Part shown: positions 25,431 to 46,682 of the stretch, piece by piece
How positions within the stretch are numbered: position 1 is the first letter of the stretch
Layout: the number at the start of each line of letters is the position of its first letter
Sequence record: SRR22947725_384
Length of the DNA stretch: 48,440 nt
Reading direction: 5' to 3' (one strand)
Program-made: the position numbers and the translations under genes
The notes under the pieces: generated by a model
What the model saw: the letters and a program-made list of their open reading frames with translations, nothing else
What the model was told of the DNA's origin: nothing
Database searches by the model: none

Positions 25431-27290
25431 TTATTTTGTTTCTTTTCCCATTTGCTCTGCATAGATCGTTACTTTTGTTTCCTCTCCCGAGGTTAGATAC
25501 TTTGCTCTTTTAATCGCTTTTGCAGTCGATAATGTTGGATTACTTACAATGTGAGGAAATATATTTTTTCGATTCATTCGTGAAAGTACTCCTGCATTTT
25601 TTAGAATTCTTAAAATATCCCGCCTAACTCCGCAAAGAAGGACATGGCAATTTTTCTCTTTTAAATAATCCAGTAATTCTTCTAGTGCCATTACGGAAGT
25701 AGCATCTAAATGATGGGCGTTCAGAAGTTTTAATACTAGAACCCGTAAGTTTGGGTCTTCACCAACCCGCCTTATTTGCTCATAAAATAAATCTGCGGCC
25801 GCAAAAAATATTTCACCCTCCACATGGACAATAGAAACCTCCGGTTCAGGACGTCGAGCCTTTCCAGACAACGCCGCAAGTTCACCCTCTTCATTATATC
25901 CATATTCAACCATTTCAGGTACAGCTACTTTCCTTAAAAATAAAAGAATTGAAGTAATAACACCGGCAAAAATTGCCATTTGTAGTGAAATAATAAGCCC
26001 GACTACCAGTGTCACCGTAAAAGTAATTGCGTCCGATCGGGTAGCTCGGGAAACAGCTTGAATCTGCCTACCTTTAATTAAGGAAGCACCGATGAAGATT
26101 ACTAATGTGGCCAGGGCAGGAATTGGAATATAAGAGACCAGTGAGCCGAGTGAGAAGTATCCAATTACCACGAAAATTCCTGCATAAAGATTAGAGGCAC
26201 TAGTCTTCGCACCCGATTGGATATTCAAAGAGGAGCGGGTAAGTGAGCCCGAGGCGGGCATGCCAGAAAGAAGGGAGCAGCCCATATTGCCCATTCCAAT
26301 AGCAAAGGTTTCCCGATTGGTTTGAATTCGTTCACCAGCTCTTGCTGCGAGTGATTTACCGATGGAGAGTCCTTCGAGGAGGCAGAGCAAAGAAATTGCA
26401 ATTGATGCCCAAAGAATGGTTCCGCTAGAATGAGATAAAGATTCAAAGTCTATGGAGGAAAGTATTCCGAGCGATGAATCGAATGTAGCAAGTGTATTTA
26501 CCGAACCAATAGTATCTTGGAGGAGAAAATGAAAAACAGACCCGAGAATTAGAGTAATTGCCACATTGGGCAAAGACTTTAGTTTATACTGTAAAATGAT
26601 ATAACTGAGGGCGGTAAATCCACTGACTATCAATGCAGGGGTAGAAAAACCAGCTAATGCTTTGGTAGATGCATATATAATTTGCCAAAAAGTAGCGATA
26701 GTGTCCCGGGAGTCTAACTCTAAGCCCAAAACATGTTTAGTCTGGTTTGCAATAATCAGGCATGCCGCGGCGGTTACATAAGCAGTAATAACCGTTCTTG
26801 ATACGAATTGAATCATGAAGGAAACTCGAAGCATCGAAGCAAGAATAAGGAAGCAGGCAGAGAAAAGTAGAATCCAGGGTAGTATCTTAATTGCCTCAAT
26901 TGTTCCCATTCCGTCCTGATTAATCATTCCTAAACTGGCAAAAACGCCAAACAGTAAGACTGATGTGGCATTAGTCGGCCCAAGCGTAATAAAGCGGGAA
27001 TTTGAAAATAAACAGCCCAGGATTGCTGCTACAGCGGAGCCTAATAAGCCATATTGAATAGGCAATCCAGAGACCAATGCATAGGCCATTCCTTGTGGAA
27101 TCGCTAAAAGTGCAACATTGAGTGCGGCTCTACAATCTGCATTAAGTAAATCGAAAGAATAGTTCTTAAAAACCAAGAGAAGAGGAAAGAACTGCTCAAA
27201 AGCAAAAGGGTGGAATCCTTCTTTTACAATATTTTTTTGGGGGGTCACAAATAAAAATGGTATTTCAGTTACTATGAACTTTCTAGGCAT
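25431..27290 (-). CDS. SulP-family anion transporter with C-terminal STAS domain
   Basis: 'AIPQGMAYA', 'GPTNA', 'SGSLTRS', STAS 'EGEIFFAAA..HLDAT'. True start may lie slightly downstream of 27290. Confidence 0.94.
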   Translation of the reverse strand: MPRKFIVTEIPFLFVTPQKNIVKEGFHPFAFEQFFPLLLVFKNYSFDLLNADCRAALNVALLAIPQGMAYALVSGLPIQYGLLGSAVAAILGCLFSNSRFITLGPTNATSVLLFGVFASLGMINQDGMGTIEAIKILPWILLFSACFLILASMLRVSFMIQFVSRTVITAYVTAAACLIIANQTKHVLGLELDSRDTIATFWQIIYASTKALAGFSTPALIVSGFTALSYIILQYKLKSLPNVAITLILGSVFHFLLQDTIGSVNTLATFDSSLGILSSIDFESLSHSSGTILWASIAISLLCLLEGLSIGKSLAARAGERIQTNRETFAIGMGNMGCSLLSGMPASGSLTRSSLNIQSGAKTSASNLYAGIFVVIGYFSLGSLVSYIPIPALATLVIFIGASLIKGRQIQAVSRATRSDAITFTVTLVVGLIISLQMAIFAGVITSILLFLRKVAVPEMVEYGYNEEGELAALSGKARRPEPEVSIVHVEGEIFFAAADLFYEQIRRVGEDPNLRVLVLKLLNAHHLDATSVMALEELLDYLKEKNCHVLLCGVRRDILRILKNAGVLSRMNRKNIFPHIVSNPTLSTAKAIKRAKYLTSGEETKVTIYAEQMGKETK

Positions 27291-27315
27291 GCGAGTAAAA
27301 GAAAAAGAAAAAATC

Positions 27316-27342
27316 TAAAGCTTTTAAGAATCGATCCGACTA
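27316..27342 (+). promoter_or_regulatory. Putative sigma-28 (FliA/SigD) promoter
   Basis: TAAA(27316-19)-N15-TCCGACTA(27335-42) versus consensus TAAA-N15-GCCGATAA, oriented toward the flagellin. Confidence 0.55.
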
Positions 27343-27350
27343 TAATAAAT

Positions 27351-27366
27351 GTCACAAGGATGTGAC
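27351..27366 (+). promoter_or_regulatory. CsrA/RsmA-type binding hairpin 1
   Basis: GTCAC-AAGGAT-GTGAC: perfect 5-bp stem with a GGA loop; contains ACAAGGATGT, the core of the CsrA consensus RUACARGGAUGU. Confidence 0.7.
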
Positions 27367-27384
27367 CGTTATAAAATTTGGTTT

Positions 27385-27406
27385 CGACAAAACAGGAGGT
27401 TAGTCG
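27385..27406 (+). promoter_or_regulatory. CsrA-type hairpin 2 overlapping an AGGAGG Shine-Dalgarno
   Basis: CGAC-AA-AAC-AGGAG-GTT-A-GTCG; SD at 27394-27399, 6 nt before GTG 27406. Confidence 0.55.
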
Positions 27407-27622
27407 TGGTCGCTCTCTTTTTATCTTTAGATAGATAAAAGCGTATTTCACAACATTTAATTCCTACCTTTATAATTTATCCTTCATGGACTCGATTTGT
27501 ACTCCTTAGAGATTACATCTCGATTACATTCTATTGGCATTAATTTCGATTAATTCAGAAATTATTGCACAAGCATATAAACCCAAAAGACCCAGTATTA
27601 TGAACTAATATAAACTTTCGGA

Positions 27623-27644
27623 GCATGATCAGGACGATACATGC
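27623..27644 (+). promoter_or_regulatory. CsrA-type hairpin 3
   Basis: GCATG-ATC-AGGAC-GAT-A-CATGC: 8-bp stem with one bulge and a GGA loop. Confidence 0.5.
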
Positions 27645-27672
27645 CCAAAATTGATTATTATCAAATTATAGC

Positions 27673-27684
27673 GACAAGGATGTC
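27673..27684 (+). promoter_or_regulatory. CsrA-type hairpin 4
   Basis: GAC-AAGGAT-GTC; second exact copy of ACAAGGATGT, about 110 nt upstream of the flagellin ATG. Confidence 0.65.
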
Positions 27685-27792
27685 ATTGTATCATTTTGTA
27701 CTCGTATATACCCGGGTGCTTAATTCCTAATTTTATTCTTTCGTTAGATTTATATTAATTACCATATTTTATATCTAACTAATTAACTAATT

Positions 27793-29097
27793 ATGATTGT
27801 ATCAGATGCCCATAACTTTGCATCTCGTTTATCTCGTAACATGGAAGAAATCCAACGAGAAAGACAGATGTACATCGAAAAACTATCCTCAGGCAAAAAA
27901 GTTGAGAAATCAACTGATGACGCCGGTGCTTTGTCTAACAAGATAAAGCAGGTGAGCGAACAAAAGAGACTCAAAGCGGTTAATCGAAATTTACAAAATG
28001 CCAAATCATACCTCGAGGTCCGAGATAGTGCACTTACAAGCGTGCATAAAATTTATGACCGAATGGCACAGCTTTCTACAATGGCTATGGATGTTACAAA
28101 GAATGATTCCGATCGTGAAAATTATGAAAAGGAATTTCAGGAGCTTCGTGACGCTGCTTTAAAATTAAGTCGTGAGAAGTTTAATGGAATTAATTTGTTC
28201 AGGGATAAGTCCTACACCTTGGTGAATAAGAATGGGGCCATTAACTGGACTGACTCAAAAGCAGAAGTGGACGCATTGAATGCTTCTGATTCAAAAAATG
28301 AACATTATTTAGCAACAATTACCACAGAGCTAGAGCAGATTGAAATTGCATTCCAAATTGGCGATGTAGGAATCAATGCCTGGTTGGGTGGTCAAGACAT
28401 CGTGGAAAATGATTGGAGGTGGACGGAAGGCCCTGAAGGAAAAGCAAATGGTGGAACAGGTACCCCTTTTTGGAATGGTAAATTCATAGGCCATCCAACT
28501 GATGATGGGACTTTTGGTCCCGTTGATGGAATGTTTGAAAATTGGGGCAACCGAGAGCCAAATGGTGATTCGGAAGATTACCTGCAGATTAGTCAAGCTC
28601 CGCAACTCGACGGGACCAGAGGCGCTTGGAACGATTTAGGAAATACATCTTCCTCAAATCCAACTTATCAACCACTTGGTTACGTCCGGGAAACCGATCA
28701 AGGAAATCTAGTAGTAAATGATGATGTTGAAGGAGGTGGTTTTGAAATTGGAAACGCACTTTTTCAAAAATTTATCTTTAGTTCTATGATCAGTGTGGAT
28801 TCAATCGAAAATGCGAAAAAAGCATTAGGATCATTGGAAAATATTTTAACAGGAGTTTCTAACGCGAGAGCGATAGGAGGAGCCTCTTTATCAAGATTGG
28901 AAAAAGAAATAACAGCCAATGAAAACCTTTCCATGGAAACAGAAAAATCCCTATCCCGTATCGAGGATGTTGATATGGCAATCACGGCAAGCAGGCTGGC
29001 CCGGGCGGAAATAAAGATGCAGTCCACAACCGCTATATTTGCACAGGCTAACAAATTATTTAACCAAAGAAATTATGTGGATGAGTTACTATCTTAA
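27793..29097 (+). CDS. Flagellin-family protein with a C-type lectin domain in the variable region
   Basis: Flagellin N-terminus 'EKLSSGKKV..STDDAGAL..NRNLQNAKSYLEVRDSAL..RMAQL..KFNGINLF'; C-terminus 'RAIGGASLSRLE..SRIEDVDMA..AQAN'; central 'W..LATIT..EQ..AWLGG.D..WRW..NW..EPN..EDY..WND'. Confidence 0.9.
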   Translation: MIVSDAHNFASRLSRNMEEIQRERQMYIEKLSSGKKVEKSTDDAGALSNKIKQVSEQKRLKAVNRNLQNAKSYLEVRDSALTSVHKIYDRMAQLSTMAMDVTKNDSDRENYEKEFQELRDAALKLSREKFNGINLFRDKSYTLVNKNGAINWTDSKAEVDALNASDSKNEHYLATITTELEQIEIAFQIGDVGINAWLGGQDIVENDWRWTEGPEGKANGGTGTPFWNGKFIGHPTDDGTFGPVDGMFENWGNREPNGDSEDYLQISQAPQLDGTRGAWNDLGNTSSSNPTYQPLGYVRETDQGNLVVNDDVEGGGFEIGNALFQKFIFSSMISVDSIENAKKALGSLENILTGVSNARAIGGASLSRLEKEITANENLSMETEKSLSRIEDVDMAITASRLARAEIKMQSTTAIFAQANKLFNQRNYVDELLS

Positions 29098-33972: not shown

Positions 33973-36288
33973 ATGATTTATCAAATATTTACCACTTGCT
34001 TGATCTTTACTTTTCTTTCCAGTTGTTCTCCGGTTAGCAGTTCCAAGAGGGTTTCTAAGGAAGAGGTCAAAAAAACACTCACCATGGACCAGGATTGGCT
34101 TTTTTGGCGTGGGCCGGACGGAAGCGGAGTCTCTGAGCAGACCAATTTGCCTGATATTCTTAGTTTAGATGATGAATCTCTTTTGTGGAGCCACGAAATA
34201 CAAGGCGGTGGAGTACCCGTAATTGCTGGGGGTAGGGCATACCAATTCGGTTATTATGGGGTAGAAGAGGAGTTGAAGGAGGCCTTGGTTTGCTTTGATG
34301 CGGCATCCGGTGAAATTCTTTGGGAGCGTACTCATAGTGATTTCATAAGTGATATTGTTTATAATAGATATGGAGTAGGAGCCGCTTCGGTCGATCCTGC
34401 TACTGGAAATGTTTACTTCCAAACTAGTCCGGGATTATTAATTGGGTATGACTCGGATGGAAATAAGCTATGGGAGCGTTCATTAATGGAGGAGTTTGCC
34501 CGACTAACATTTCCTAATGGGCGGACAGGTGGGCCTTGCGTAGATGGAGATTTAGTGATCATTCACGCAATTACCGCTAATTGGGGCAAACAAGGACCTG
34601 CGCGGGATCGATTTTATGCATTTGATAAAAATACTGGAGATTTAGTTTGGTCATCGACTCCTGGAATTACCCCGAAAGACAGTTCTTTTTCGCCTTTAAC
34701 ATTTGAAGATTTGCCAAGTGGAAGAAGAGTCTTTTACAGTGGAACGGGTTGCGGACATGTGGTTTGCATCGATGCACGTACTGGACAGCCTTTGTGGCGA
34801 TTTCAGATGTCGTACGGAGGAGTCAATTCCGGAGTAGTGATTCACGAAAACTCTGTAATTGCGGTTCACGGTAAGGAAAATATTGATTCTTCCACCATTG
34901 GCAGAATGGTCGCGATTAAAAAACCCAAAAAACTTCCCTTGTTAAATGAAGAAATTCTAATTCTTGGAAAAGAGGATGAGGTTTGGAGGAATAATTCAAT
35001 GGAAGCATTTACGAGCACTCCAGTTTATAAAGATGATCGAGTCTATTCTACGATTAAACGGGGCGAACTCATTTGTTTAGATGCTGGTACAGGAGAAGAA
35101 ATCTGGACTTTAAAATTGGCACCCGATCAGGTTCATGCCTCCCCCGTTTGGGCGGATGGAAAACTTTTTGTTCCCATGTTTGACGGTCAAGTTTCAGTAG
35201 TGAAGGATACGGGTCAGGAAGGCGTTATATTAAGTCAGGTTCAACTTGATGGTTCGTGTTTAGCGGGTCCGGCAGTGGCGCACGGGCGAGTATTTGTTCA
35301 ATCCAAAAAAAGACTTTATTGCTTTGGTTCTAATAAAGTCGCTCCTGCATTTATTTCCCATCAATCAGAAAAAGAACTCAGCAGTCAAAAAGCCGTTTCC
35401 TTGCAAGTAATTCCTGCAGAGTTTGCGCTTAAGTCAGGAGATTCACTCGCCTTTAAGGTTTTTTCTTTGAATGAGAATGGCCAAAGAATTGCTGAAATCA
35501 AAGAGGGCTTAAGTTGGGCAAAATGGATACCGCCAACTGCAAAAGTTCAATCTAAAGTAGATGCAGAAATAAGGCCTAACGGAATCTTGGTAGCCGAAAA
35601 GGATGCCACGCTTTCTGCAGGTGCTATTCGGGTAAGTAAGGGTGACTTGCACGGGGTTACTCGAGGCCGGATCCTACAGGACTTACCCTATGAAGAAAAT
35701 TTTGAGGAAGGATTTTCATTAACCCAGAAAAGTTCGGACCAAATCCCATTTTCTTATGCTCCCCTTGCCTGGCTTGGAGCAAGAATGAGATGGCAGGTAC
35801 AGGAGCTATCAGGAAATTTAGTGGCCGGTAATACTTTGGATCGAATTTTATTTCAACGGGCTATTAATTTTGTTGGGCATAAGGATATGAATAATTATAC
35901 TGCTGAAGCCGATGTTATGACAGATGGGGATCGTCGTATAAAATCAAATATTGGGTTAATTAATCAGCGTTATATATTTGCATTGATTGGAAATGGGCAA
36001 AAGTTAGAAATTATTTCAAACTACGATCGATTTAGGCATTCCGTCCCGTTTTCTTTTAAGACAAATATTTGGTATACACTAAAAACCCGGGTTGACATTC
36101 TCGAGGATGGAACGGGCATGATTCGGGCTAAAGCTTGGCCAAAATCGGCCGAAGAACCAGACCAATGGACTATCGAGGTGGCACATGAAACTCCCCACTT
36201 ACAAGGTGCTCCAGGTGTTTATGCAATGTCACCTCAGAGTAAGAAGAAGGTATATTTCGATAATTTGTCTATCCGCTATAACAATTAA
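33973..36288 (+). CDS. Lipoprotein: PQQ-like beta-propeller plus Ig-like and ConA/LamG-like C-terminal domains
   Basis: Lipobox 'FLSS-C'; 'WLFWRGPDGSG'; Trp-docking blades; beta-rich C-terminus ending 'VYFDNLSI'. Confidence 0.85.
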   Translation: MIYQIFTTCLIFTFLSSCSPVSSSKRVSKEEVKKTLTMDQDWLFWRGPDGSGVSEQTNLPDILSLDDESLLWSHEIQGGGVPVIAGGRAYQFGYYGVEEELKEALVCFDAASGEILWERTHSDFISDIVYNRYGVGAASVDPATGNVYFQTSPGLLIGYDSDGNKLWERSLMEEFARLTFPNGRTGGPCVDGDLVIIHAITANWGKQGPARDRFYAFDKNTGDLVWSSTPGITPKDSSFSPLTFEDLPSGRRVFYSGTGCGHVVCIDARTGQPLWRFQMSYGGVNSGVVIHENSVIAVHGKENIDSSTIGRMVAIKKPKKLPLLNEEILILGKEDEVWRNNSMEAFTSTPVYKDDRVYSTIKRGELICLDAGTGEEIWTLKLAPDQVHASPVWADGKLFVPMFDGQVSVVKDTGQEGVILSQVQLDGSCLAGPAVAHGRVFVQSKKRLYCFGSNKVAPAFISHQSEKELSSQKAVSLQVIPAEFALKSGDSLAFKVFSLNENGQRIAEIKEGLSWAKWIPPTAKVQSKVDAEIRPNGILVAEKDATLSAGAIRVSKGDLHGVTRGRILQDLPYEENFEEGFSLTQKSSDQIPFSYAPLAWLGARMRWQVQELSGNLVAGNTLDRILFQRAINFVGHKDMNNYTAEADVMTDGDRRIKSNIGLINQRYIFALIGNGQKLEIISNYDRFRHSVPFSFKTNIWYTLKTRVDILEDGTGMIRAKAWPKSAEEPDQWTIEVAHETPHLQGAPGVYAMSPQSKKKVYFDNLSIRYNN

Positions 36289-36299
36289 TTTAAATCTCT

Positions 36300-37826
36300 A
36301 TGAAATTACACATGATCAATAAATCAACAGTCCCACTCGTTATATTCCTTTTTTCGATGTCCAGTTTGCTCGGCGCAGATTGGCCCATGTGGGGAAAAGA
36401 TGGAAGTAGAAATATGGTCTCCGATGAAAAGAAAATTACTTTCGATTTCGTGGCGGGTGAAATGAGTGACGATGAAGTGGTGGATATGAAAACCACGAAA
36501 AACCTTAGATGGGTGGCGAAATTGGGATCTCAGGCATATGGAAATGTAACCATTGGAAACGGTTGTGTATTTGTCGGAACCAATAATGAGTCGCCCCGCG
36601 ATCCAGGAAAAAAAGGAGACCGAGGAGTAGTGATGTGCTTGGATGAAAAATCGGGCGAATTAAAGTGGCAATTAGTTATACCCAAGCTCGGTGCAGGAAA
36701 GGTGAGTGATTGGGAGTATATTGGCATTTGTTCCTCTACCGCAATAGACGGCGATAAAGTTTATGTTGTTACAAATCGCTGTGAGGTAGTCTGTTTGGAC
36801 ATTCATGGTTTAACTAATGGAAATGACGGTCCCTTTAAAGACGAGGCATCCTATATCAAACCAAAGGGGATGTCAGATGCTCTGAATGAAAAATTAGATG
36901 CTGATATTCTTTGGATGTATGACATGCGGGACGAATTGGGAGTTTTTCCACACAATGTAACGAGTTCTTCTCCGGTAATTATTGGTGATACAGTATATGT
37001 TGCGACTTCTAACGGGGTGGATTGGTCACATACGAACATACCCAGCCCACTTTCACCGAGTTGGATTGCCCTCAACAAGACCACGGGTGAATTAATTGGG
37101 GAAGATGGTTCCGGAGCAAGTGAAAATGCACTACATGCGGCTTGGTCTTCATTAACCTATGGTAATGTCGATGGGGCTGAAATTTTGATATGGGGCGGAA
37201 CGGATGGATTTTGTTATGGTTATAATAACAAAACAGAGAAAGATGCCGATGGGTATGATTTGTTTCAACCCATTTGGAAGGTTGATTGTAATGAACCCAA
37301 TTACCGTAAAGATTCAGACGGAAAGAAAATTCCTTATGCCACTCCTCCTGGACCAAGTGAATTAATTGGGACGCCAGTTTTGTATGAAGGAAAAGTGTAC
37401 TGTGCGATCGGTCAGGATCCAGAGCATGGAGATGGGGTCGGGAGACTCTCCTGTATCGATGCAAAGACGGGCAAAATAGTCTGGAAATACACAGAGGTGG
37501 GTCGAACCATATCCACGGTATCTATTGCCGATGATTTGGTCTACATCGCAGAATATGCCGGGCTAATCCATTGTGTAGATGCAAACACTGGAAAAGTATA
37601 CTGGACCCACGATTCATTTAGCCGGATTTGGGGTTCCACTCTCATTGCCGATGGAAAACTCATTTTAGGAAATGAGGATGGCGATTTATTGGTAATGGAT
37701 CATGGAAAATCGAAACCGAAAGTGAAGACAATAAACATGGGTGCTCCTGTTTATAGTTCCCCTGTCGTTGCAAACGGCGTTCTTTATATCGGTACGCAAA
37801 CACATCTATACGCAATCGGAAAATAG
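36300..37826 (+). CDS. Secreted PQQ-binding-like beta-propeller protein
   Basis: Signal peptide '..LLG-ADWPMWG..SRN'; blades 'CLDEKSGELKW', 'CIDAKTGKIVW', 'CVDANTGKVYW'. Confidence 0.9.
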   Translation: MKLHMINKSTVPLVIFLFSMSSLLGADWPMWGKDGSRNMVSDEKKITFDFVAGEMSDDEVVDMKTTKNLRWVAKLGSQAYGNVTIGNGCVFVGTNNESPRDPGKKGDRGVVMCLDEKSGELKWQLVIPKLGAGKVSDWEYIGICSSTAIDGDKVYVVTNRCEVVCLDIHGLTNGNDGPFKDEASYIKPKGMSDALNEKLDADILWMYDMRDELGVFPHNVTSSSPVIIGDTVYVATSNGVDWSHTNIPSPLSPSWIALNKTTGELIGEDGSGASENALHAAWSSLTYGNVDGAEILIWGGTDGFCYGYNNKTEKDADGYDLFQPIWKVDCNEPNYRKDSDGKKIPYATPPGPSELIGTPVLYEGKVYCAIGQDPEHGDGVGRLSCIDAKTGKIVWKYTEVGRTISTVSIADDLVYIAEYAGLIHCVDANTGKVYWTHDSFSRIWGSTLIADGKLILGNEDGDLLVMDHGKSKPKVKTINMGAPVYSSPVVANGVLYIGTQTHLYAIGK

Positions 37827-37849
37827 AGGTGAATTCTTTATCCAGCCCA

Positions 37850-38083
37850 ATGAAAAAAAGAGTTATTTGGTTCCTTTTCCTACTTCTTTTCATTGTGCAC
37901 CAAGATTTTTGGTGGTGGGATGATGCCTTTCTTGTTTTTGATTTCCTACCAATAGGATTAGCTTTCCATGCCGGTTTTTCAATCGTGTGTGCAATTTTAG
38001 GTTGGGCAGCAATTAAGTATGCATGGCCGCACGATTTGGAACGATTTGCCGAAGAAAATAACGACGAGGAGAATGCCATATAA
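37850..38083 (+). CDS. Small two-TM partner of a sodium:solute symporter (DUF3311-like)
   Basis: 'HQDFWWW....LVFDFLPIGLAFH', acidic tail; stop overlaps the symporter start (TAATG). Confidence 0.8.
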   Translation: MKKRVIWFLFLLLFIVHQDFWWWDDAFLVFDFLPIGLAFHAGFSIVCAILGWAAIKYAWPHDLERFAEENNDEENAI

Positions 38084-39792
38084 TGACTACCCTAATTGTA
38101 ATAATTCTTTACCTGTGCTTACTACTTGGACTAGGTTTTTTTAGTAGTCGTTTATTTAGGGGTACGAGCAAAGACTACTTCGTTGCAAGCCATAGTATTG
38201 GGCCTTTTTTACTGTTAATGAGTGTTTTTGGTACAACTATGACCGCCTTTGCATTAGTTGGCTCGACTGGAAAATCTTTTGAAAGAGGGATCGGAACTTA
38301 TGGTTTAATGGCTTCGATCAGTGGTCTTGTACATGCTGGTATATTTTTTCTTATTGGGATTCGATTGTGGGCTTTTGGGAAAAAGTATGGATATATTACT
38401 CAAATCCAATTTTTTCGGGCACGGTTTGAATCAGATGGGTTGGGCTATTTACTTTTTCCAATTCTTGTATTGCTCGTTGTTCCTTATCTTTTGATAGGAA
38501 TAATTGGAGCCGGTAAGACGATCGAGCCGGTTACCGCGGGTGCATTTACAGAAATTTTTACCAACCCTACCGCTCCCCAATGGCTGGGGGGGATACCTCC
38601 CTGGCTAACCGGCTTAGTTGTTTCCCTTGTCGTTCTGACTTATGTCTTTATGGGGGGGTCCAGGGGGGCCGCGTATGCGAATACATTTCAGACAATAGTT
38701 TTCATGGTGATGGGAGTAGTCGCTTTTGTATATATTATTAATGGATTAGGGGGAATGGAGCAGGCGGGTAAGGTGCCGGCACGAATAACCGAGAAGGGAA
38801 TAATTGTACAAGATTATCAATTTGATAAAACCACAAAGGAGTTGGTAAAGAATGAAAAACCAAAACCGATTGGACGGGTTACCGATTCAACCACTGTTGA
38901 TTTATCAAATAAGCAACCTCACTTAGCCCGTACCCCAATCCAGGTGGAATTCAAAAAGAAGAACCCAAAAACAGGAGTAATTTCTTCGTTTGAAAGAGAG
39001 CTCGGAATTCCTTTCATTACCTTTTTATCCTACTTCTTTATACCGCTAAGCGTGGGAATGTTTCCCCACCTCTTTCAACATTGGCTTACTGCGAAAAGTG
39101 CCAAAGCATTTCGTTTAACCGTAATTGCTCACCCTCTGTGTATTATGGTGGTTTGGGTGCCATGCGTGTTAGTCGGAGTGTGGGCATCGGGAGTGCTTCC
39201 GCCCGGTATTCCTCCTCCCGCAGTGTTATCCGCCATGCTTAATTTATTAGTTGGAGATCCCGTGCTAACTGGGCTTTTAACGGCAGGAGTTTTGGCTGCA
39301 ATCATGTCGTCATTGGATTCTCAATTTCTTTGTCTTGGAACCATATTTACCAATGATATTGTGATCCACCGAGCGGGAAAAAATAAGTACAGTGATAAAC
39401 AGGTGATATTGATCGCCCGTGTATTTATTGTGGTCATTGTTGCCCTGACTTATGTCCTCGCCATGTGGGCAAAAAATGCCAACGTCTTCGATCTCGCGAT
39501 TTGGTGTTTTAGCGGATTCTCAGCTCTTTTTCCGGTCGTTTTTGCAGCTTTATATTGGAAGCGGGCAACAAAAGAAGGTGCATTTGCCAGTATCATTGCA
39601 GCTCTTATTTCTTGGCTTTATTTCTTTCACCTTTCTGGGTATGGAGGTGAATTGGTGATTGGCCCAGGTATTATTCCAGCCGCAGTTTGTTTTGCCGTGG
39701 CAGCAATCGCAATGGTTCTTGTTTCTCTGCTGACAAAACCACCAACGGAAGAAACATTACAAAAATTTTTCCCCTCGGCCAAAAAATTGTAA
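38083..39792 (+). CDS. Sodium:solute symporter family protein
   Basis: 'DYFVAS', 'YGYITQ', 'YVFMGG.RG', 'LAAIMSSLDSQ', 'LYWKRATKEGA'; many TM helices. Confidence 0.94.
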   Translation: MTTLIVIILYLCLLLGLGFFSSRLFRGTSKDYFVASHSIGPFLLLMSVFGTTMTAFALVGSTGKSFERGIGTYGLMASISGLVHAGIFFLIGIRLWAFGKKYGYITQIQFFRARFESDGLGYLLFPILVLLVVPYLLIGIIGAGKTIEPVTAGAFTEIFTNPTAPQWLGGIPPWLTGLVVSLVVLTYVFMGGSRGAAYANTFQTIVFMVMGVVAFVYIINGLGGMEQAGKVPARITEKGIIVQDYQFDKTTKELVKNEKPKPIGRVTDSTTVDLSNKQPHLARTPIQVEFKKKNPKTGVISSFERELGIPFITFLSYFFIPLSVGMFPHLFQHWLTAKSAKAFRLTVIAHPLCIMVVWVPCVLVGVWASGVLPPGIPPPAVLSAMLNLLVGDPVLTGLLTAGVLAAIMSSLDSQFLCLGTIFTNDIVIHRAGKNKYSDKQVILIARVFIVVIVALTYVLAMWAKNANVFDLAIWCFSGFSALFPVVFAALYWKRATKEGAFASIIAALISWLYFFHLSGYGGELVIGPGIIPAAVCFAVAAIAMVLVSLLTKPPTEETLQKFFPSAKKL

Positions 39793-39823
39793 ATTTATTA
39801 AATCCTTTTTTAATGGAAACATT

Positions 39824-40900
39824 ATGAGTATAGATGAAAAAGTTAAACATGCGGCAGACGAGCTTGATGCTCATGTTGTAGAAATGATCAAGTGGCATTT
39901 TTCGCCAGATACAGGATCTCCCTTTTGGCTTGATTGGGCGAAAGAGCAAAATTGGGATCCCTTGAATGAAATCAAGAACTTTGAGGATATTTGTCAGAAA
40001 TTCCCTAATTTTGAAGATGAATGGTTGAGGGATCTGCCCAATGAAGTATGGGTTCCCCAACCTTACAAGGGAAAACCTTTTAATATATTTGAAACAGGTG
40101 GGACTACAGGTATGCCCAAGCAAAGAATTGGTTGGGACGATTTTCGTATTGATTACACTGCATTCTCCGAAACATTAAAAGACGAGCATTTCCCGCGTGA
40201 TGATTATTGGATGATGGTCGGTCCTACTGGGCCGCGTCGCTTACGACTCTCGATAGAGCACCTAGCCAATGAGCGAGGTTGTTCGTGTTACTTTGTTGAT
40301 TTAGACCCGCGATGGGTGAAGAGATTGATTGCGAGTAAGCAATTTGATCAGGCCCGGGCCTACATGGACCATGCCGTGGATCAGGCCTTAACAATTCTGA
40401 AGCATCGAAAAGTAAGTGCATTATTCACCACACCGAAATTACTCGAAGCCCTGGCGGAGAGAAAGGATTTGATAAAAGCAGGAATTAAGGGCGTTTTTTG
40501 TGGAGGTACTACCATGGACAAGCAATATGCCCGGTTTTTAGTCGAGGAAGTATGTGAAGGCGGAAAAATCGGATTTGTACCCACTTATGGAAATACCTTA
40601 ATGGGTCTTGCCAGGCACCATCCATTTGGTGCAGAAAATGACTACTCAATCGCGTACTATGCTCCACAGCCAAGGGCCGTTCTTCGTGTCATTAACCCGG
40701 ATACAAATAATACAGTCGACTACGATTCTTGGGGTCGGGTCGAATTAACAACTTTAACGAAAGAATTTTTTATGCCCCGATTTTTGGAGCGTGATGAAGC
40801 TTTACGTCGAAAACCTTGGAGCGAGGCTCCATGGGACGGGGTCGCAGAAGTTCGCCCTTTCGGTGCAATGGAAAAAAATATTGTAGAAGGAGTATATTAA
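39824..40900 (+). CDS. Short ANL-superfamily adenylating enzyme, EhpF/PaaK-like
   Basis: 'WHFSPDTGSPFWL', P-loop 'ETGGTTGMPK', 'GPTGP', 'DLDPRWVK', 'YGNT', 'LERD'; 358 aa without a normal C-terminal domain. Confidence 0.78.
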   Translation: MSIDEKVKHAADELDAHVVEMIKWHFSPDTGSPFWLDWAKEQNWDPLNEIKNFEDICQKFPNFEDEWLRDLPNEVWVPQPYKGKPFNIFETGGTTGMPKQRIGWDDFRIDYTAFSETLKDEHFPRDDYWMMVGPTGPRRLRLSIEHLANERGCSCYFVDLDPRWVKRLIASKQFDQARAYMDHAVDQALTILKHRKVSALFTTPKLLEALAERKDLIKAGIKGVFCGGTTMDKQYARFLVEEVCEGGKIGFVPTYGNTLMGLARHHPFGAENDYSIAYYAPQPRAVLRVINPDTNNTVDYDSWGRVELTTLTKEFFMPRFLERDEALRRKPWSEAPWDGVAEVRPFGAMEKNIVEGVY

Positions 40901-40901
40901 T

Positions 40902-42335
40902 ATGAATACACCCCATATACCGTGCTTACGTCTTGGAAAAGAGTATCGTAGCTTTAACGAATCAGAAGTAAAAGATTACCGTAACGGTGCGGTAAAAGCT
41001 ACTATGAGCCAAGTCAATGCCGGCGTAATTCGAAGAGATCTATTAAAGATCGATCAAGCACGTGAGGCACTGCAAAAGTTTACTACCCGAGAATTAATTG
41101 ATATTAGTGCAAAGGCTGGTGAGTTATTTCTGAATGGAACTCTTCCGCTGGGAGAAGGGGGAAGGTCACAAAGTGGGCAAGATTATCTGGAAACGCTTTC
41201 AGCCACCAGTGGTTTACCCCATGTGATGGTAAAAAGAAATATGGATAAAATTCATTATGCTCTTACCCATGTGGAATTAATTTTGAATGGGTTGACCCGC
41301 GGGATTGATCCTTCGATTCTAGATCGAGGTTTTGGAGAACAGGCAGGATCTCCCGTATGTTTTTATCCCACAACCAATGCATTGGGCTTAGTTATGCCAA
41401 GTAATTCGCCGGCAGTAAACTCACTATGGTTGCCCTCAATTGCACTAAAAATTCCCATTATTATGAAACCGGGTCGGGATGAACCATGGACCCCTTTCAG
41501 GCTTATTCAGTCATTTATTGCCGCAGGTTGCCCACGGGAAGCCTTTGGTTTTTATCCCACTGACCATGAGGGTGCGGCGGATATTCTTCGACTTTGCAAT
41601 CGAGCATTGATTTTTGGAGATAAAAGCACCACTGATTTATATGCGGGCAATCCCGGAGTACAAGTACATGGTCCAGGTTTTAGTAAAGTACTGATTGGGG
41701 AAGACGAAATTGAAAATTGGCCTGACTTTATTGATGTTATGGCATCCTCTATTTCAGATAATGGTGGTAGAAGTTGCGTAAATGCATCCGCTATCATTGT
41801 TCCCAAATATGCAAAGGAAATTGCGGACGCTCTTGGTAAAAGGTTGGGTTCCCTAAAACCGCTACCTGTCGATGACCCGAACGCGGTACTTTCTGGATTT
41901 GCAAATCCTAAAATGGGCGAATGGATAGATGGTGCAATCGATGCTGATTTATGCCAGAAAGGGGCGATCGACACTACCGCGATTTATCGTACCGGACCCC
42001 GTCTATTACAAGCGGAGGGTGGAACCTATTTATGTCCCACAATTGTCTATTGTGAATCGATGGATCACCCGCTTTCTAACCGCGAGTTCCTATGTCCCTA
42101 TGCGAGTGTAGTTGAAGTTCCTCAACCAGATATGCTCAATGCAATAGGGCCTACCTTAGTTGTTTCTGCTATCACAAAAGATGAAACATTTAAGAGACAA
42201 TTACTTTCTGCATCGAATATCGAACGATTAAACCTTGGCCCAATCTCCACAATGAAAATATCTTGGGATCAGCCTCACGAAGGAAATATGTTTGAGTTTC
42301 TCTACAAGCGCAGATCAATCGGAATGGCAGCATAA
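40902..42335 (+). CDS. Aldehyde dehydrogenase superfamily, EhpG/LuxC-like acyl reductase
   Basis: 'PSNSP', 'MKPG', catalytic Cys in 'NGGRSCVNAS'; 'HGPGFSK' replaces the canonical ELGGK. Confidence 0.82.
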   Translation: MNTPHIPCLRLGKEYRSFNESEVKDYRNGAVKATMSQVNAGVIRRDLLKIDQAREALQKFTTRELIDISAKAGELFLNGTLPLGEGGRSQSGQDYLETLSATSGLPHVMVKRNMDKIHYALTHVELILNGLTRGIDPSILDRGFGEQAGSPVCFYPTTNALGLVMPSNSPAVNSLWLPSIALKIPIIMKPGRDEPWTPFRLIQSFIAAGCPREAFGFYPTDHEGAADILRLCNRALIFGDKSTTDLYAGNPGVQVHGPGFSKVLIGEDEIENWPDFIDVMASSISDNGGRSCVNASAIIVPKYAKEIADALGKRLGSLKPLPVDDPNAVLSGFANPKMGEWIDGAIDADLCQKGAIDTTAIYRTGPRLLQAEGGTYLCPTIVYCESMDHPLSNREFLCPYASVVEVPQPDMLNAIGPTLVVSAITKDETFKRQLLSASNIERLNLGPISTMKISWDQPHEGNMFEFLYKRRSIGMAA

Positions 42336-42352
42336 TTGACTTTCCATTGCCA

Positions 42353-43585
42353 ATGATAGATTCACACGCAGATGATGTAAAAGGAGATTCTTTTTTTATT
42401 GATGGCGAGAAGGCTACTCAAAAAATTATTTATGGAAATGGGGTAATTAATAAGGCGGGGGAAGTAGCTAAGGAATGTGGAAGCAATCTCTTACTTGTTA
42501 CTGACTCCGGTTTATCTTCTGCGGGGCACCCTCAAAAACTAAAAGAGATTTTCGAACAATCGAATTTGAATGTTACTCTTTTTGACAAGTCTATCGAGAA
42601 TCCAACTGAATCAAGTGTGCAAAGTTGCGTGCAGGTAGCAAGTGAAGCACATGTTGACTTAATAGTGGGACTGGGAGGAGGAAGTTCTATGGATACTGCA
42701 AAAGGATGTAACTTCATTCTTAGTAATGGAGGCAGGATGTCAGACTACTGGGGTATTGGCAAAGCCAGCCAACCAATGCTCCCATTTATTGCAATTCCAA
42801 CTACCGCGGGCACTGGAAGCGAATGCCAGTCGTTTGCTTTAATTTCAGAGGATCAAACTAATAAAAAAATGGCTTGTGGGGATAAGAAAGCACTTCCTAA
42901 AATTACCATTCTGGATCCAGAATTAACTCTTTCTTTACCGAGTTCGGTAACAGCCTGTACTGGAGTTGATGCACTGGCCCATTCGCTTGAATCTTTAGTT
43001 ACAACTAAAAGAAATCCCAGTTCCAATCGACACGCTCAACTTGCTTTTGATTTAATTCAGAAAAACCTACCATTAGTTTTTGAAAACCCTCAAGATTTAA
43101 AAAGTAGGGGAGCGGTATTGCTGGGTGCTTCCCATGCGGGTGCCGCAATTGAAAGAAGTATGCTTGGTGCTGCCCATTCAATGGCGAATCCATTAACCGC
43201 AAGCCGTGGAGTGATCCATGGAATTGCGGTGGGCATGGTACTGCCTCAAGTTATGAAATTTAATGCAGAACAAGAGGAGACTAATCGTATTTATGCGGAG
43301 GTTGCAAGAAAGTCGGGACTGGCAGGGCCGAATAGTCAAGATTCTGAGGCAACAAGAAATCTCATTGCCCGGGTATGTGAAATCTTGAAGTTAGCTAATA
43401 TTTCATCCTCGTTAGAGGATTATGGTTTTGTACCTTCAGAGATAAACTCTTTAGCCGCTGCCGCTCAAGAGCAATGGACAGCCAGTTTTAATCCACGATC
43501 CATTAATTCAAGTGATTTCAAAAATCTTTATTCTCTTCTTTTCCCGACTGCTTTTTGTGAAAATCAGGTCGCTCAGGCAAATTGA
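42353..43585 (+). CDS. Iron-containing alcohol dehydrogenase
   Basis: 'GLGGGSSMDTAK', 'IPTTAGTGSE', 'DALAH', 'AHSMANPL', 'HG'. Confidence 0.93.
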   Translation: MIDSHADDVKGDSFFIDGEKATQKIIYGNGVINKAGEVAKECGSNLLLVTDSGLSSAGHPQKLKEIFEQSNLNVTLFDKSIENPTESSVQSCVQVASEAHVDLIVGLGGGSSMDTAKGCNFILSNGGRMSDYWGIGKASQPMLPFIAIPTTAGTGSECQSFALISEDQTNKKMACGDKKALPKITILDPELTLSLPSSVTACTGVDALAHSLESLVTTKRNPSSNRHAQLAFDLIQKNLPLVFENPQDLKSRGAVLLGASHAGAAIERSMLGAAHSMANPLTASRGVIHGIAVGMVLPQVMKFNAEQEETNRIYAEVARKSGLAGPNSQDSEATRNLIARVCEILKLANISSSLEDYGFVPSEINSLAAAAQEQWTASFNPRSINSSDFKNLYSLLFPTAFCENQVAQAN

Positions 43586-43590
43586 TTCCA

Positions 43591-44736
43591 ATGAGGAATA
43601 ATATACTAGTACTCTTTTACGCTCTCTTGTTCATTGTAAGTGGTTCAATTATAGCAAAAAATAAACAAGCTGGAATTGATTGGCCCCGCCATCGGGGTGG
43701 AGCTGAATTGAAAGGAATATCACAAGCTAAAATCGGAAAAACTCTTGAGCTTGATTGGGAGTTTAAAACAGGCGATTTTCTTAAATCATCCGTCGTTGTT
43801 TCTGGGAACCTTGCTTTCATAGGTGCCGAAACGGGTACCCTTTTTGCGCTATCTTTAGATAATGGAAAGGAAGTGTGGAAATACAAAACGAGTCTTGGGA
43901 TTGACGCTCCTCCCTTGGTTCATGAGGGCGTCGTTTACACTGGGTCAACAGATGGCTTTCTTTATGCGCTTGATGCTAAAAGTGGGAAGTTAATTTGGAA
44001 ATATGAAACGGGGGGTGAAATTATGGGGGCGGCCAATCAGGGAATTCGCCCTACTACAAAGGACTCTGTTCTGGTGGTTGGGAGTTATGATAATTTTGTT
44101 CATTGCGTAAATGCTAAAACAGGTAAGGTGGTTTGGACATTTGAAACGCAAAACTATGTAAATGGAGTACCGACTATTTCGGAGGGCAAATATGTGGTTA
44201 TCGGGGGATGTGATTCCGTGCTTTATGTGATAGGGCTAGAGGATGGGAAATTAGTTCGGTCCGTAGAAGTGGAGGCCCCAATTGCGGCTTCAGTCTCGGT
44301 TTCCGACGGAATTGGTTATGTGGGAAATATGGACAGAGCGGTCATGGCTTTTGACCTAAAAACGGGAGACATCGTATGGAATTATCGGCAGAAAAGTTTC
44401 CCCTACTTTTCATCCCCTGCGGTAACTAAAACCCAAGTTATAATTGGTGGACGGGATAAAGGACTTCATTGCATTAACCGAATTACGGGAAAGCAGGATT
44501 GGCGCTTCTCGGCACGGGGCCGAATTGATAGTTCGCCAGTTGTTTCGGGCGATAAAGTAGTATTTGGCTCAATGGATGGAAAACTATATCTTCTTTCAAT
44601 GAAAGACGGAAAAGAAATTTCATCTTATGAAGTGGGAGAGCCAATTTCATCAACTCCAGCGGTAGTAAATGAAAGAATTCTAGTAAGCTGTGAAGATGGA
44701 AATGTGTATGCCTTTAAAGTAAAATTAATCAAATGA
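43591..44736 (+). CDS. Secreted PQQ-like/BamB-like beta-propeller protein
   Basis: Signal peptide, 'DWPRHRG', about eight regular 'S.P.V..G.V..GS.DG.LYAL...G...W' blades. Confidence 0.9.
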   Translation: MRNNILVLFYALLFIVSGSIIAKNKQAGIDWPRHRGGAELKGISQAKIGKTLELDWEFKTGDFLKSSVVVSGNLAFIGAETGTLFALSLDNGKEVWKYKTSLGIDAPPLVHEGVVYTGSTDGFLYALDAKSGKLIWKYETGGEIMGAANQGIRPTTKDSVLVVGSYDNFVHCVNAKTGKVVWTFETQNYVNGVPTISEGKYVVIGGCDSVLYVIGLEDGKLVRSVEVEAPIAASVSVSDGIGYVGNMDRAVMAFDLKTGDIVWNYRQKSFPYFSSPAVTKTQVIIGGRDKGLHCINRITGKQDWRFSARGRIDSSPVVSGDKVVFGSMDGKLYLLSMKDGKEISSYEVGEPISSTPAVVNERILVSCEDGNVYAFKVKLIK

Positions 44737-46070
44737 GCGATTCAACTTTTATTAAACCTGACTATCAGACTGAAGATGAAACAAAGGCAGGGAATTATTT
44801 TGTTTCAAATTACCCTCCTTTTTCTTTTTGGAATGATGAGGATGTTCCCTGCGTAAACAGCATGATTAATAGTCCCTCCCAGGGAACTGCACCATTGGGA
44901 ATTTATTATCATGTTCCCTTCTGTCGAAAGCGCTGTCATTTTTGCTATTTTAAAGTATATACAGATAAAAACTCGAATGATGTTCGCCGCTACCTCTCGG
45001 CCACGATTGAGGAATTGAGGACGTATTCTGAGTCACCTTACTTGCAGGGGCGTAAGCCTAAATTTGTTTATTTTGGTGGTGGTACACCATCCTATTTATC
45101 GGCCCAGCAACTTACCGAATTAACCGATCAAATGAAGGCAATCTTGCCATGGGATGAAGCTGAGGAAGTCACCTTTGAGTGCGAACCGGGAACGCTTTCG
45201 GAGAAGAAGCTTAGTGTAATCAAAGAATTTGGAGTGACCCGATTAAGTTTAGGGGTCGAGAATTTTAATGATCATATCTTAGGAATTAATGGACGGGCCC
45301 ATCGCTCGAAAGAAGTTTTTCGAGCTTATGAATTCGCTCGGGGACTTGGTTTTGATAATATTAACATCGATTTGATTGCAGGCATGCTCGAAGAGACTGA
45401 TGAAAATTGGTCTGATTGTGTGGATCAGGTGGTAGATTTATCTCCGGACTGTGTCACCATTTATCAAATGGAAGTACCATTTAATACCGGGATTTTTAAA
45501 AATATGAAGGAGGGGGGCAAGTTAAGTGCTCCTGTAGCAGACTGGCCAACTAAGCGCCGCTGGGTTGCAGAAGCGTATGAAAAATTGGAAAAAGCAGGTT
45601 ATACGATAACCAGTGCTTACACCGCAGTTAAAAATCCAGAAACTACAAAATTTATTTACCGTGATCGATTATGGTCGGGTGCTGATATGGTTGGCCTGGG
45701 GGTATCTTCTTTTGGACATTTGGGTGGTATTCATTATCAAAATATTACCAATATCGATCATTATTGCGACTCCGTGGAAGCTAAAAAAGCTCCCGTTCGA
45801 CGGGCACTAATGACTCAGGAAGAAGAACGTTTTATCAGGGAACTTATTCTGCAATGGAAATTGGGCCGGGTGGACAAAAAATATTTTCAAAAAAAGTTTG
45901 GTATATCTGTAACCGAGCGATTTTCATTAATTATTACGAAGTGGAAAGAAAATGGTGACCTGATAGAAGAAGGAGACTATCTTGTTCTTATACGCGATGC
46001 ACTTTTACGAGTAGATTCTTTACTCCATCAGTTTTTCTTACCTCACCATCAAGATGCTCGGTATGTGTAA
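44733..46070 (+). CDS. HemN-like radical SAM enzyme (coproporphyrinogen III oxidase family, function unassigned)
   Basis: 'HVPFCRKRCHFC' CxxxCxxC, 'YFGGGTPS', 'RLSLGVE', 'NIDLIAG', 'GLGVSS'. Confidence 0.9.
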   Translation: MSDSTFIKPDYQTEDETKAGNYFVSNYPPFSFWNDEDVPCVNSMINSPSQGTAPLGIYYHVPFCRKRCHFCYFKVYTDKNSNDVRRYLSATIEELRTYSESPYLQGRKPKFVYFGGGTPSYLSAQQLTELTDQMKAILPWDEAEEVTFECEPGTLSEKKLSVIKEFGVTRLSLGVENFNDHILGINGRAHRSKEVFRAYEFARGLGFDNINIDLIAGMLEETDENWSDCVDQVVDLSPDCVTIYQMEVPFNTGIFKNMKEGGKLSAPVADWPTKRRWVAEAYEKLEKAGYTITSAYTAVKNPETTKFIYRDRLWSGADMVGLGVSSFGHLGGIHYQNITNIDHYCDSVEAKKAPVRRALMTQEEERFIRELILQWKLGRVDKKYFQKKFGISVTERFSLIITKWKENGDLIEEGDYLVLIRDALLRVDSLLHQFFLPHHQDARYV

Positions 46071-46079
46071 GCGATTGTA

Positions 46080-46631: not shown

Positions 46632-46682
46632 TTAGTTTCTATATTTGTAAAAACAGAAAACCTGACTTGAATAAATACTATC

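Follow-up and report, generated by a model that had tools for sequence, protein, structure and literature searches.

The 48,440-nucleotide (nt) stretch SRR22947725_384, the whole of which is termed the window, contains on its plus strand an open reading frame (ORF) whose product joins the termini of a flagellin to an internal C-type lectin domain. The protein, referred to here as the lectin-flagellin, is a flagellin paralogue that probably binds sugar and may be displayed on the flagellar filament. The gene and its parts are as follows (positions are those of the window; aa, amino acids).

27793..29097, plus strand: lectin-flagellin gene, 434 aa, 0 Cys (Pfam, full-length model)
27793..27891, plus strand: N-terminal D0 helix, divergent and charged, without the INTN motif (2/10 near-invariant residues kept)
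27892..28206, plus strand: spoke and N-terminal D1 helices (26/32 near-invariant residues kept)
28207..28701, plus strand: cysteine-free C-type lectin domain, aa 139-303, in the D2/D3 position (profile and fold searches)
28396..28407, plus strand: D202 and E205, probable auxiliary Ca2+ site-1 ligands (invariant in 114/114 homologues)
28555..28578, plus strand: E255 and N257 (EPN) with E261/D262, main Ca2+/sugar site (114-homologue alignment)
28627..28635, plus strand: N280 and D281 (WND), main Ca2+/sugar site (invariant in 114/114)
28804..29094, plus strand: C-terminal helices of D1/D0, with three residues inserted close to the end (Pfam Flagellin_C, alignment)

A flagellin backbone around a C-type lectin domain

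Both flagellin termini score above the Pfam cut-offs, Flagellin_N at aa 10-138 (E 1.2e-19, 71.2 bits against 26.6) and Flagellin_C at aa 348-422 (E 2.9e-11, 44 bits against 23). The full-length model, with a predicted local distance difference test (pLDDT) score of 86, contains D0/D1 helices at residues 2-33, 44-98, 105-126 and 338-425, and the top matches of a fold search with this model were flagellar filament subunits. Of the residues that are near-invariant in flagellins, the N-terminal D1 region (ND1) retains 26/32, compared with 13/32 in FlgL, and the C-terminal D0 helix (CD0) 11/17. A canonical flagellin aligns by BLASTP with 42% identity over aa 2-144 (E 4e-31), whereas the genus's own FlgL aligns only in short pieces of 20-24% identity (E 0.007). 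On these two values an identity as FlgL was rejected, although TIGR02550 (FlgL) is the top NCBIfam match (96.6 bits, under its cut-off of 127.2) and several database homologues bear the name 'flagellin-like hook-associated protein FlgL'. The ORF product, judged from its sequence, is a flagellin paralogue and not FlgL. Scans with Pfam and NCBIfam found no peptidase family in the protein, which lacks the HExxH motif of flagellinolysin.

The insert carries YTLV (28213), LATI (28309), WLGG (28381), WRW (28414), EPN (28555-28563), ED (28573-28578) and WND (28627-28635). A preliminary description of the window had reported this motif order with its coordinates, the absence of cysteine and the flanking flagellin termini, all of which match ORF 27793-29097. 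The Pfam scan that it proposed returned Flagellin_N and Flagellin_C as expected; Lectin_C had no match in the full protein or in the insert alone, even at E 10, and phmmer with the single protein found nothing in PDB. As single-sequence searches find nothing, the lectin assignment rests on the profile of the relatives and on the fold. Lectin_C is matched at E≤1 in 23/24 members of the insert alignment, the window's own copy being the exception. A profile of these 24 inserts gave 130 PDB matches at E≤1, and all 60 listed were C-type lectin domains, including CEL-I (1.8e-9) and MBP-A (4e-7); the EPN..ED..WND stretch aligned with that of the CEL-I EPNH mutant and of a mosquito lectin. The AlphaFold model of the insert (pLDDT 94.3, predicted template modelling score 0.91) displays the two helices, antiparallel N/C strands and long-loop region of the fold. 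It matches the collectin CL-K1 (4yli) with Z 15.6 and a root-mean-square deviation (rmsd) of 1.6 Å over 115 aa, codakine with Z 15.5 and SP-D with Z 15.3; all 50 rows listed by the structure search were C-type lectin-like domains, and Foldseek was concordant. In the ESM Atlas the insert matched Lectin_C clusters at 0.82, every match being below 0.9. The ordered motif EPN/QPD..E[DN]..WND was present in 20 of 200,000 shuffles of the insert. C-type lectin domains contain four conserved cysteines forming two disulfides (PMC9630629), a feature absent from this protein and from the 111/114 homologues that are likewise cysteine-free. Profile and model thus confirm the insert as a C-type lectin domain, the fold that had been predicted for it.

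Homologues at E≤0.001 number 274, of which 120 were listed; the alignment used here comprises the 114 of at least 400 aa, six shorter ones having been dropped. E261, W279, N280 and D281 are invariant in all 114. Position 255 is Glu in 108 and Gln in six, position 257 is Asn in 108 and Asp in six, and the two changes are always coupled. If this QPD pair is allowed, the five main site positions (E255, N257, E261, N280 and D281) are kept in 114/114, consistent with the intact EPN/WND site of the preliminary description. In a tree built without the binding loop the QPD pair needs two changes, both forced by well-supported branches, and the loops beside the site vary from 3 to 10 residues across the homologues. 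D202 and E205, which we take from MBP-A to be ligands of Ca2+ site 1, are also invariant. In five of the six QPD alleles (P0017, P0024, P0042, P0047 and P0048) the motif is followed by a Trp and a Gly-rich loop, presumably comparable to that of galactose-type animal lectins. EPN versus QPD is the known switch between mannose-type and galactose-type binding (PMC9630629). The loop from D202 to E205 is one residue shorter in the window subtype, the auxiliary Ca2+ site of which may be lost, as it is in codakine (PMC12842671). From the alignment the sugar site looks to be under selection, and it is probable that the lectin domain binds sugar.

A flagellin-type leader in a flagellated genus

The gene is preceded by a promoter-like element and a leader of about 445 nt, with the following predicted parts.

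27316..27342, plus strand: sigma-28 (FliA)-like promoter, TAAA box, 15-nt spacer, CCGA box (nine orthologous upstream regions)
27351..27366, plus strand: leader hairpin 1, GGA loop, CsrA-type site (two pairs with changes on both sides)
27385..27406, plus strand: leader hairpin 2, GGA loop, also resembling a Shine-Dalgarno (SD) sequence (96.8% of cells paired, 0 both-side changes)
27623..27644, plus strand: leader hairpin 3, GGA loop (three pairs with changes on both sides)
27668..27689, plus strand: leader hairpin 4, GGA loop, CsrA consensus (core invariant in 9/9)

The TAAA and CCGA boxes are conserved in 9/9 aligned orthologous upstream regions, and a regular expression for the element matched at 10/12 loci. 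We take TAAA-N15-CCGA to be a sigma-28 element from the general form of that consensus; the strict enteric version occurred at 0/96 loci. Two of the hairpins, hairpin 1 among them, fit the CsrA consensus RUACARGGAUGU obtained by SELEX (PMC7652899), and ACARGGATGT has three matches in the window, two of them within the leader, against a chance mean of 0.2 per window. Across nine orthologues 93.5% of the cells in the leader structure are paired and five pairs have changed on both sides, values reached by 1 and 2 of 500 shuffles, in a test that favours the window because the structure was derived from its sequence. Folded alone, the hairpins are no better than shuffles (z -0.35 and -0.02). A CsrA-type motif lies upstream, on the sense strand, of 25/100 flagellin ORFs versus 2/171 other ORFs (antisense, 1/100 and 14/171), counts drawn from related genomes and hence not independent; in canonical flagellins it is located at about -50 nt. 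The only Rfam match, to IMES-3 (15.7 bits, cut-off 55), was rejected as chance. At 27393-27438 the SD-like GGAGG of hairpin 2 is followed by a 10-codon GTG ORF, which is probably no real leader peptide, since the aligned orthologues do not preserve its GTG.

The genes for CsrA and FliW are adjacent in 5/5 genomes, and in genome G007 they directly follow flgL. Given the sigma-28-like element, the CsrA-type hairpins and these csrA/fliW genes, the lectin-flagellin gene looks wired into the flagellin circuit, and the four-hairpin leader could act as a CsrA sponge. The flagellin-type leader adds support to the view, already advanced in the preliminary description, that this is an accessory flagellin, as does the presence of many canonical flagellins alongside it in relatives.

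The host is probably a member of the marine Opitutales genus MB11C04, on the basis of Opitutales names, a one-genus family and guanine-cytosine content. The nearest genome, G001, has 74% of sampled words in common with the window and is 99.7% identical at the two ends of the gene. It contains a contiguous flagellar operon with FlgB, FliF, FliG, FliI, FlgE, FliM, FliP, FlhB and FlhA, together with a sigma factor in the FliA position, MotA, MotB, FlgG, FlgH, FlgI, FlgN and FlgK; an export apparatus, whose lack would have implied a repurposed protein, is thus present. The family profile of MotA also matches ExbB/TolQ and is uninformative. An FlhA-family match was found in 33/37 genus genomes. FliS, FliD and a cluster of canonical flagellins occur in four relatives that are 93-96% complete, FliS and FliD being present in 4/5 genomes searched, and a separate FlgL is located after flgK in G007. 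Flagellar genes have been reported in every metagenome-assembled genome (MAG) of MB11C04, and flagellar proteins in metaproteomes (PMC8857213).

Within the window the gene stands apart, as had been noted: none of the 34 other ORFs scanned with Pfam is a flagellar gene. Upstream of it is a SulP transporter, and the downstream gene, of 404 aa, has no annotation. Positions 33973-48440 hold a cluster of PQQ-type beta-propeller proteins, a sodium:solute symporter, an AMP-binding protein, aldehyde and alcohol dehydrogenases, a radical SAM enzyme and a flavin halogenase-like gene, and positions 22-6081 encode a surface-type protein of 2,019 aa with PD40 beta-propeller repeats and an immunoglobulin-like domain.

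Exchange of lectin cores between conserved termini

Comparison of alleles shows that lectin cores are exchanged between conserved termini and occur side by side in single samples. Two intervals are involved.

27953..28941, plus strand: exchangeable core, aa 54-383, comprising part of D1, the lectin domain, a linker and part of the C-terminal D1 (alleles, assembly breaks)
28548..28664, plus strand: sugar-binding loop region, with a further EPD-type variant in the same samples (loose contig ends)

At aa 1-53 and 384-434, homologues P0085 and P0088 do not differ from the window protein (100% identity), whereas the three segments between show 57, 49-51 and 32% identity. The contigs of G001 stop at 27952 and resume at 28942, the exact boundaries of the core. 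In two marine runs from a single study an alternative core, termed type B, is joined at 28942 to the common 3' end, and a loose contig end at this junction agrees with type B in 29/30 bases. With termini identical to those of the window, the type-B core forms a 33-member cluster, single members of which lie on 14 and 61 contigs. Genome G013 combines a type-B core with flanks about 90% identical to the window, while G009 and G022 contain both cores in tandem, the first copy of G022 being QPD. Conversely, in the P0049 group the lectin domain is 80% identical and the backbone only 34-40% identical at aa 1-53. Over 113 homologues, identity at aa 1-53 follows that at aa 384-434 (Spearman 0.90) and not that of the lectin domain (0.07). 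Most syntenic homologues share 92-100% identity over their last 51 residues, even with a different core. A smaller exchange is suggested at the binding loop, where contigs leave the window sequence for an EPD loop, in two runs after 28547 and in one run before 28665; the loop was translated by eye and pieced together from separate loose ends that perhaps belong to different molecules.

It is possible to view the mosaic alleles as chimeras, since every source is a metagenomic assembly and the 99% identity of G014 to the window is confined to 27121-27952, the rest being at about 70%, a pattern for which one mis-join could suffice. This explanation, which concerns the swapping and not the fusion, appears improbable in view of the 33-member cluster and the number of contigs bearing its members, the allele of G013 and the recurrence of the 28942 junction in two runs. 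The tandem cores of G009 and G022 would also provide a natural source for exchange.

The fusion itself is scattered. Precomputed PF00059 annotations are present on 20/120 listed homologues, two of which are named 'flagellin [Opitutales bacterium]'. The lectin insert matched in 20/37 genus genomes versus 0/24 genomes of other families in the order, and ORF reading places it within a flagellin in 17 of these 20, one of them broken by a stop. Among 301 genomes of the phylum the lectin profile matched 10 at E≤1e-8, and none of the nine ORFs listed was flagellin-like. A quick tree built from 114 N-domains requires five changes of the lectin label, three forced by well-supported branches, which suggests that the fusion arose or moved several times. 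Homologue P0302 has a lectin insert on a canonical flagellin backbone, with 10/10 and 16/17 near-invariant terminal residues.

The insert profile matched 11,533 representatives at E≤0.001, and proteins of 1,000-7,000 aa make up most of the best 150; one of the large proteins is named cadherin-like protein of a Flavobacteriia bacterium. Of 260 near-full-length domains from 147 of the best representatives, 171 are cysteine-free, 120 have EPN/WND and 16 QPD/WND. The same module occurs in large non-flagellin proteins of the host genus, and the insert may have been acquired from such cysteine-free lectin modules of large bacterial surface proteins. Four non-flagellin proteins of 1,166 to about 2,270 aa (L039, L041, L049 and P0174) combine FG-GAP repeats and a lectin domain with a degenerate flagellinolysin-like domain lacking HExxH, both payloads thus residing in one surface protein. 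Elsewhere, a Pedosphaera MAG (L057:3575-4861) and P0294-P0301 represent a separate lectin-flagellin family with one QPD member, in which a compact lectin domain lies between the two N-terminal D1 helices and not in D2. A Burkholderiaceae MAG (L052:3932-6448), P0250 and L054 have long flagellins of betaproteobacterial type that contain one or two lectin domains, L054 being a 1-kb contig, probably misbinned, in a bin labelled Bifidobacterium.

Display on the filament, alternatives and known systems

In the proposed mechanism the gene would be transcribed from the sigma-28-type promoter and, as the motifs suggest, repressed by CsrA until FliW relieves the repression during filament assembly, the timing being that of the structural flagellins. 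The product would be exported by the flagellar type III apparatus and co-assembled at low stoichiometry with canonical flagellins as a minor 'payload' flagellin. Its lectin domain is predicted, from the conserved site, to bind terminal mannose, glucose, N-acetylglucosamine or fucose-type sugars through one Ca2+, and repetition of the domain along the filament would provide avidity. Homologous recombination between the conserved termini would swap whole cores and binding loops (EPN, QPD and EPD) and may serve to vary sugar specificity or surface identity within the population. Filament display together with sugar binding is given a probability of about 0.5. A predicted complex with a canonical flagellin scored 0.28 against a mark of 0.32 and was used neither for nor against this view.

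Several observations weigh against it. The N-terminal D0 helix (ND0) keeps only 2/10 near-invariant residues, a count equal to that of FlgL, the C-terminal D1 region keeps 3/7, and CD0 contains the 3-residue insertion. At the sugar site, the EPN-to-E loop of the window subtype is three residues long (49/114 homologues), shorter than in the solved lectins aligned to the profile, and EPN is followed by Gly (42/114), mostly Asn or Asp in the others; in invertebrate lectins EPN is reported to be often a poor predictor of ligand (PMC12842671). FliD, FliS and the cluster of canonical flagellins were not found in G001 (86% complete), which we tentatively read as poor assembly of a repetitive island, and FliD_N is found in only 14/41 genus genomes and 8/12 high-quality ones. 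Parts of the window stretch occur in 13 RNA-labelled runs, and the four that were mapped cover the flanking genes equally; flat cover across genes leaves DNA possible, and no claim of transcription is made from these runs. The preliminary description had suggested algal surfaces or polysaccharide particles as possible ligands; cells of the MB11C04 family are described from fluorescence in situ hybridisation as mostly single and unattached (PMC8857213).

A less probable, if serious, alternative is that the protein is a secreted lectin of flagellin ancestry, exported by the flagellum and co-regulated with it, which does not polymerise and which binds or cross-links exopolysaccharide (EPS) or cell-surface glycans. 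The strong divergence of ND0 while D1 and CD0 are conserved is consistent with this proposal, as are other payload paralogues of the genus with equally or more degenerate D0 regions, and the regulatory evidence fits it equally well. There is also a precedent, as Vibrio FlaE/F are reported to be expressed and secreted by way of the flagellar channel, to bind EPS and not to occur in filaments (PMC6692518). The near-identity of the last 51 residues despite a differing core suggests instead that D0 has a role under constraint, although the binding of a chaperone could by itself account for this. The canonical backbone of P0302 bearing the same kind of insert, and the retention of both D0 helices in the full-length model, likewise favour filament display.

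It is rather unlikely that the lectin fold serves mainly as a variable coat, in evasion of phage or grazers or in serotype-like switching, or as a protein- or mineral-binding module, with sugar binding lost or incidental. The swapping of a variable region while the flagellin termini stay conserved is classic for H antigens (PMC7018530), sugar binding has been lost in many C-type lectin-like domains (PMC12842671), and the Ca2+ loops of the window subtype are shortened. Against this, the five site positions are invariant even though the adjoining loops vary, and the 114 homologues show a single kind of substitution there, EPN to QPD as a coupled pair, with at least two origins. Neither the site positions nor a coupled switch would be retained in a surface that was purely antigenic. 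That the protein is a FlgL-like component of the hook-filament junction or another special-position subunit, as its top NCBIfam match, the names of homologues and the FlgL-like divergence of ND0 might suggest, is very improbable given the BLASTP values, the flagellin residues kept in D1 and the separate FlgL of G007.

The lectin-flagellin is one of many flagellin paralogues. Flagellin_N matches were found in 37/37 genus genomes, 1 to 33 in each (matches, not copies, with FlgL counted), and G013, G009, G015, G024, G012 and G007 have 21-33. The paralogues comprise short canonical flagellins, proteins with Peptidase_M9, with a DxSGS motif that we read as von Willebrand factor A (vWA)-like or with beta-rich inserts, and giants of 950-1,150 aa. 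At L015, L016, L019 and L020 tandem canonical flagellins, interspersed with payload paralogues, lie beside fliD and a MptE/Maf-like gene. Flagellinolysin-like HExxH flagellins of two backbone clades occur at L023:2170-3882 (G001 C68), L078, L084, L085, L090 and L019; the Peptidase_M9 flagellin of G001 scores 195 bits against the flagella_HExxH cut-off of 205, and Opitutae members of this kind are already in cluster 15 of Fields 2024. In L022:183-1703 (G001 C98) and L089, Flagellin_N is followed by the DxSGS insert, in our reading resembling a metal ion-dependent adhesion site and possibly a vWA payload; the C-terminus is very degenerate, with no Flagellin_C match, and this paralogue retains 1/10 ND0 and 1/17 CD0 near-invariant residues. 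Related beta-rich inserts of about 150-220 aa, the commonest payload of the genus, are present in L024:8717-9982, L077, L079, L081 and L082, and also in L085, L086, L088 and L090-L093; the three scanned had no Pfam match, and the ESM Atlas gave nothing informative. Overlong FliD (up to about 1,950 aa), FlgK (about 1,040 aa) and FlgL (about 1,280-1,400 aa) at L015:2-1957, L073-L075 and L018:12853-19841 suggest payloads on cap and junction proteins. Short, degenerate flagellin-N-like proteins without a flagellin C-terminus (L080:1191-1925, L094:1192-1953, L015:9502-10305, L083 and L096) are conserved across genomes.

More speculatively, and in our view with the odds clearly against it, the genus may build a multifunctional flagellum from up to about 30 paralogues, structural ones together with lectin, peptidase, vWA-like and beta-sandwich payloads. 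The filament would then be a micrometre-long multivalent glycan catcher with a specificity retuned by recombination (EPN, QPD, EPD), with which free-swimming cells could catch dissolved algal polysaccharides or glycoproteins while a peptidase subunit processes them on the same filament. Three features go beyond the preliminary description: the exchange of cores, the EPN/QPD switch found in nature and this multi-payload repertoire.

If displayed, the lectin-flagellin would be a multivalent lectin of very large size on a marine bacterium that is abundant and associated with blooms, and would link motility with the recognition of glycans in ocean carbon cycling; if secreted and not in the filament, it would still be a flagellin-routed lectin. 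The EPN, QPD and EPD alleles on one scaffold provide a test, without disulfides, of the specificity rules of animal C-type lectins, and the genus is a test case for managing 10-30 flagellin paralogues under one CsrA/FliW circuit.

In the literature searched no account of a lectin-flagellin was found, although the 61-domain figure (Fig. 1a) and Supplementary Table 1 of Eckhard 2017 may list a lectin domain. Cluster 213 of Fields 2024 comprises five Opitutae flagellins of 421-460 aa, one of the five annotated with Flagellin_N, Flagellin_C and Lectin_C (PMC11532411, Supplementary Data 1), and, matched by its table description and without alignment, is very probably the lectin-flagellin family. 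The cluster appears as table rows only, without analysis of site, regulation, allele exchange or function, and the main text has 0 uses of 'lectin' (PMC11532411). As far as searched, the architecture is therefore catalogued yet unexamined; that study describes neither the conserved site with its natural switches nor the leader, the exchange of cores or the payload toolkit.

The lectin domain resembles EPN-type carbohydrate recognition domains (MBP-A, CL-K1, SP-D, codakine and DC-SIGN) in its WLGG/WxW core, its EPN...E...WND site and its fold (Z 15.3-15.6, rmsd 1.4-1.6 Å). It differs in being bacterial, in lacking disulfides, in its shorter EPN-to-E loop and in about 25-30 extra residues between WxW and EPN; multivalency, provided by a coiled-coil neck in the animal lectins, would here come from the filament. 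Like Hag-FliW-CsrA (Bacillus subtilis hag, Campylobacter jejuni flaA), the system has csrA and fliW by the flagellar operon and GGA-loop hairpins in the flagellin leader, whereas it has four predicted hairpins spread over about 445 nt, none of which covers an obvious start-adjacent SD. Core exchange is akin to H-antigen switching, in which variable regions are swapped between conserved flagellin termini (PMC7018530), but acts on a binding domain. Vibrio FlaE/FlaF are likewise additional paralogues of flagellin whose assembly surfaces are altered, and they bind glycans and are exported by the flagellum, as is predicted for the lectin-flagellin. The transferable sequence signature reported for them is limited to three Vibrio positions (PMC6692518). 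They have no recognisable carbohydrate-binding motif, whereas the lectin-flagellin has a dedicated lectin domain.

The closest parallel is flagellinolysin, which carries a gluzincin peptidase in the flagellin hypervariable region, the payload flagellin being a minor filament component (PMC5595980). In both proteins a foreign domain lies between intact flagellin N and C regions, and both genes are accessories beside structural flagellins, scattered across lineages. The lectin-flagellin differs in its payload, a lectin and not a protease, in a far more divergent D0 and in its exchanged core alleles, and filament display, shown for flagellinolysin, is here only inferred. Flagella with an enzymatic payload are thus already known; the lectin-flagellin is not a member of the flagellinolysin family but would work like it, with a lectin in place of the protease.

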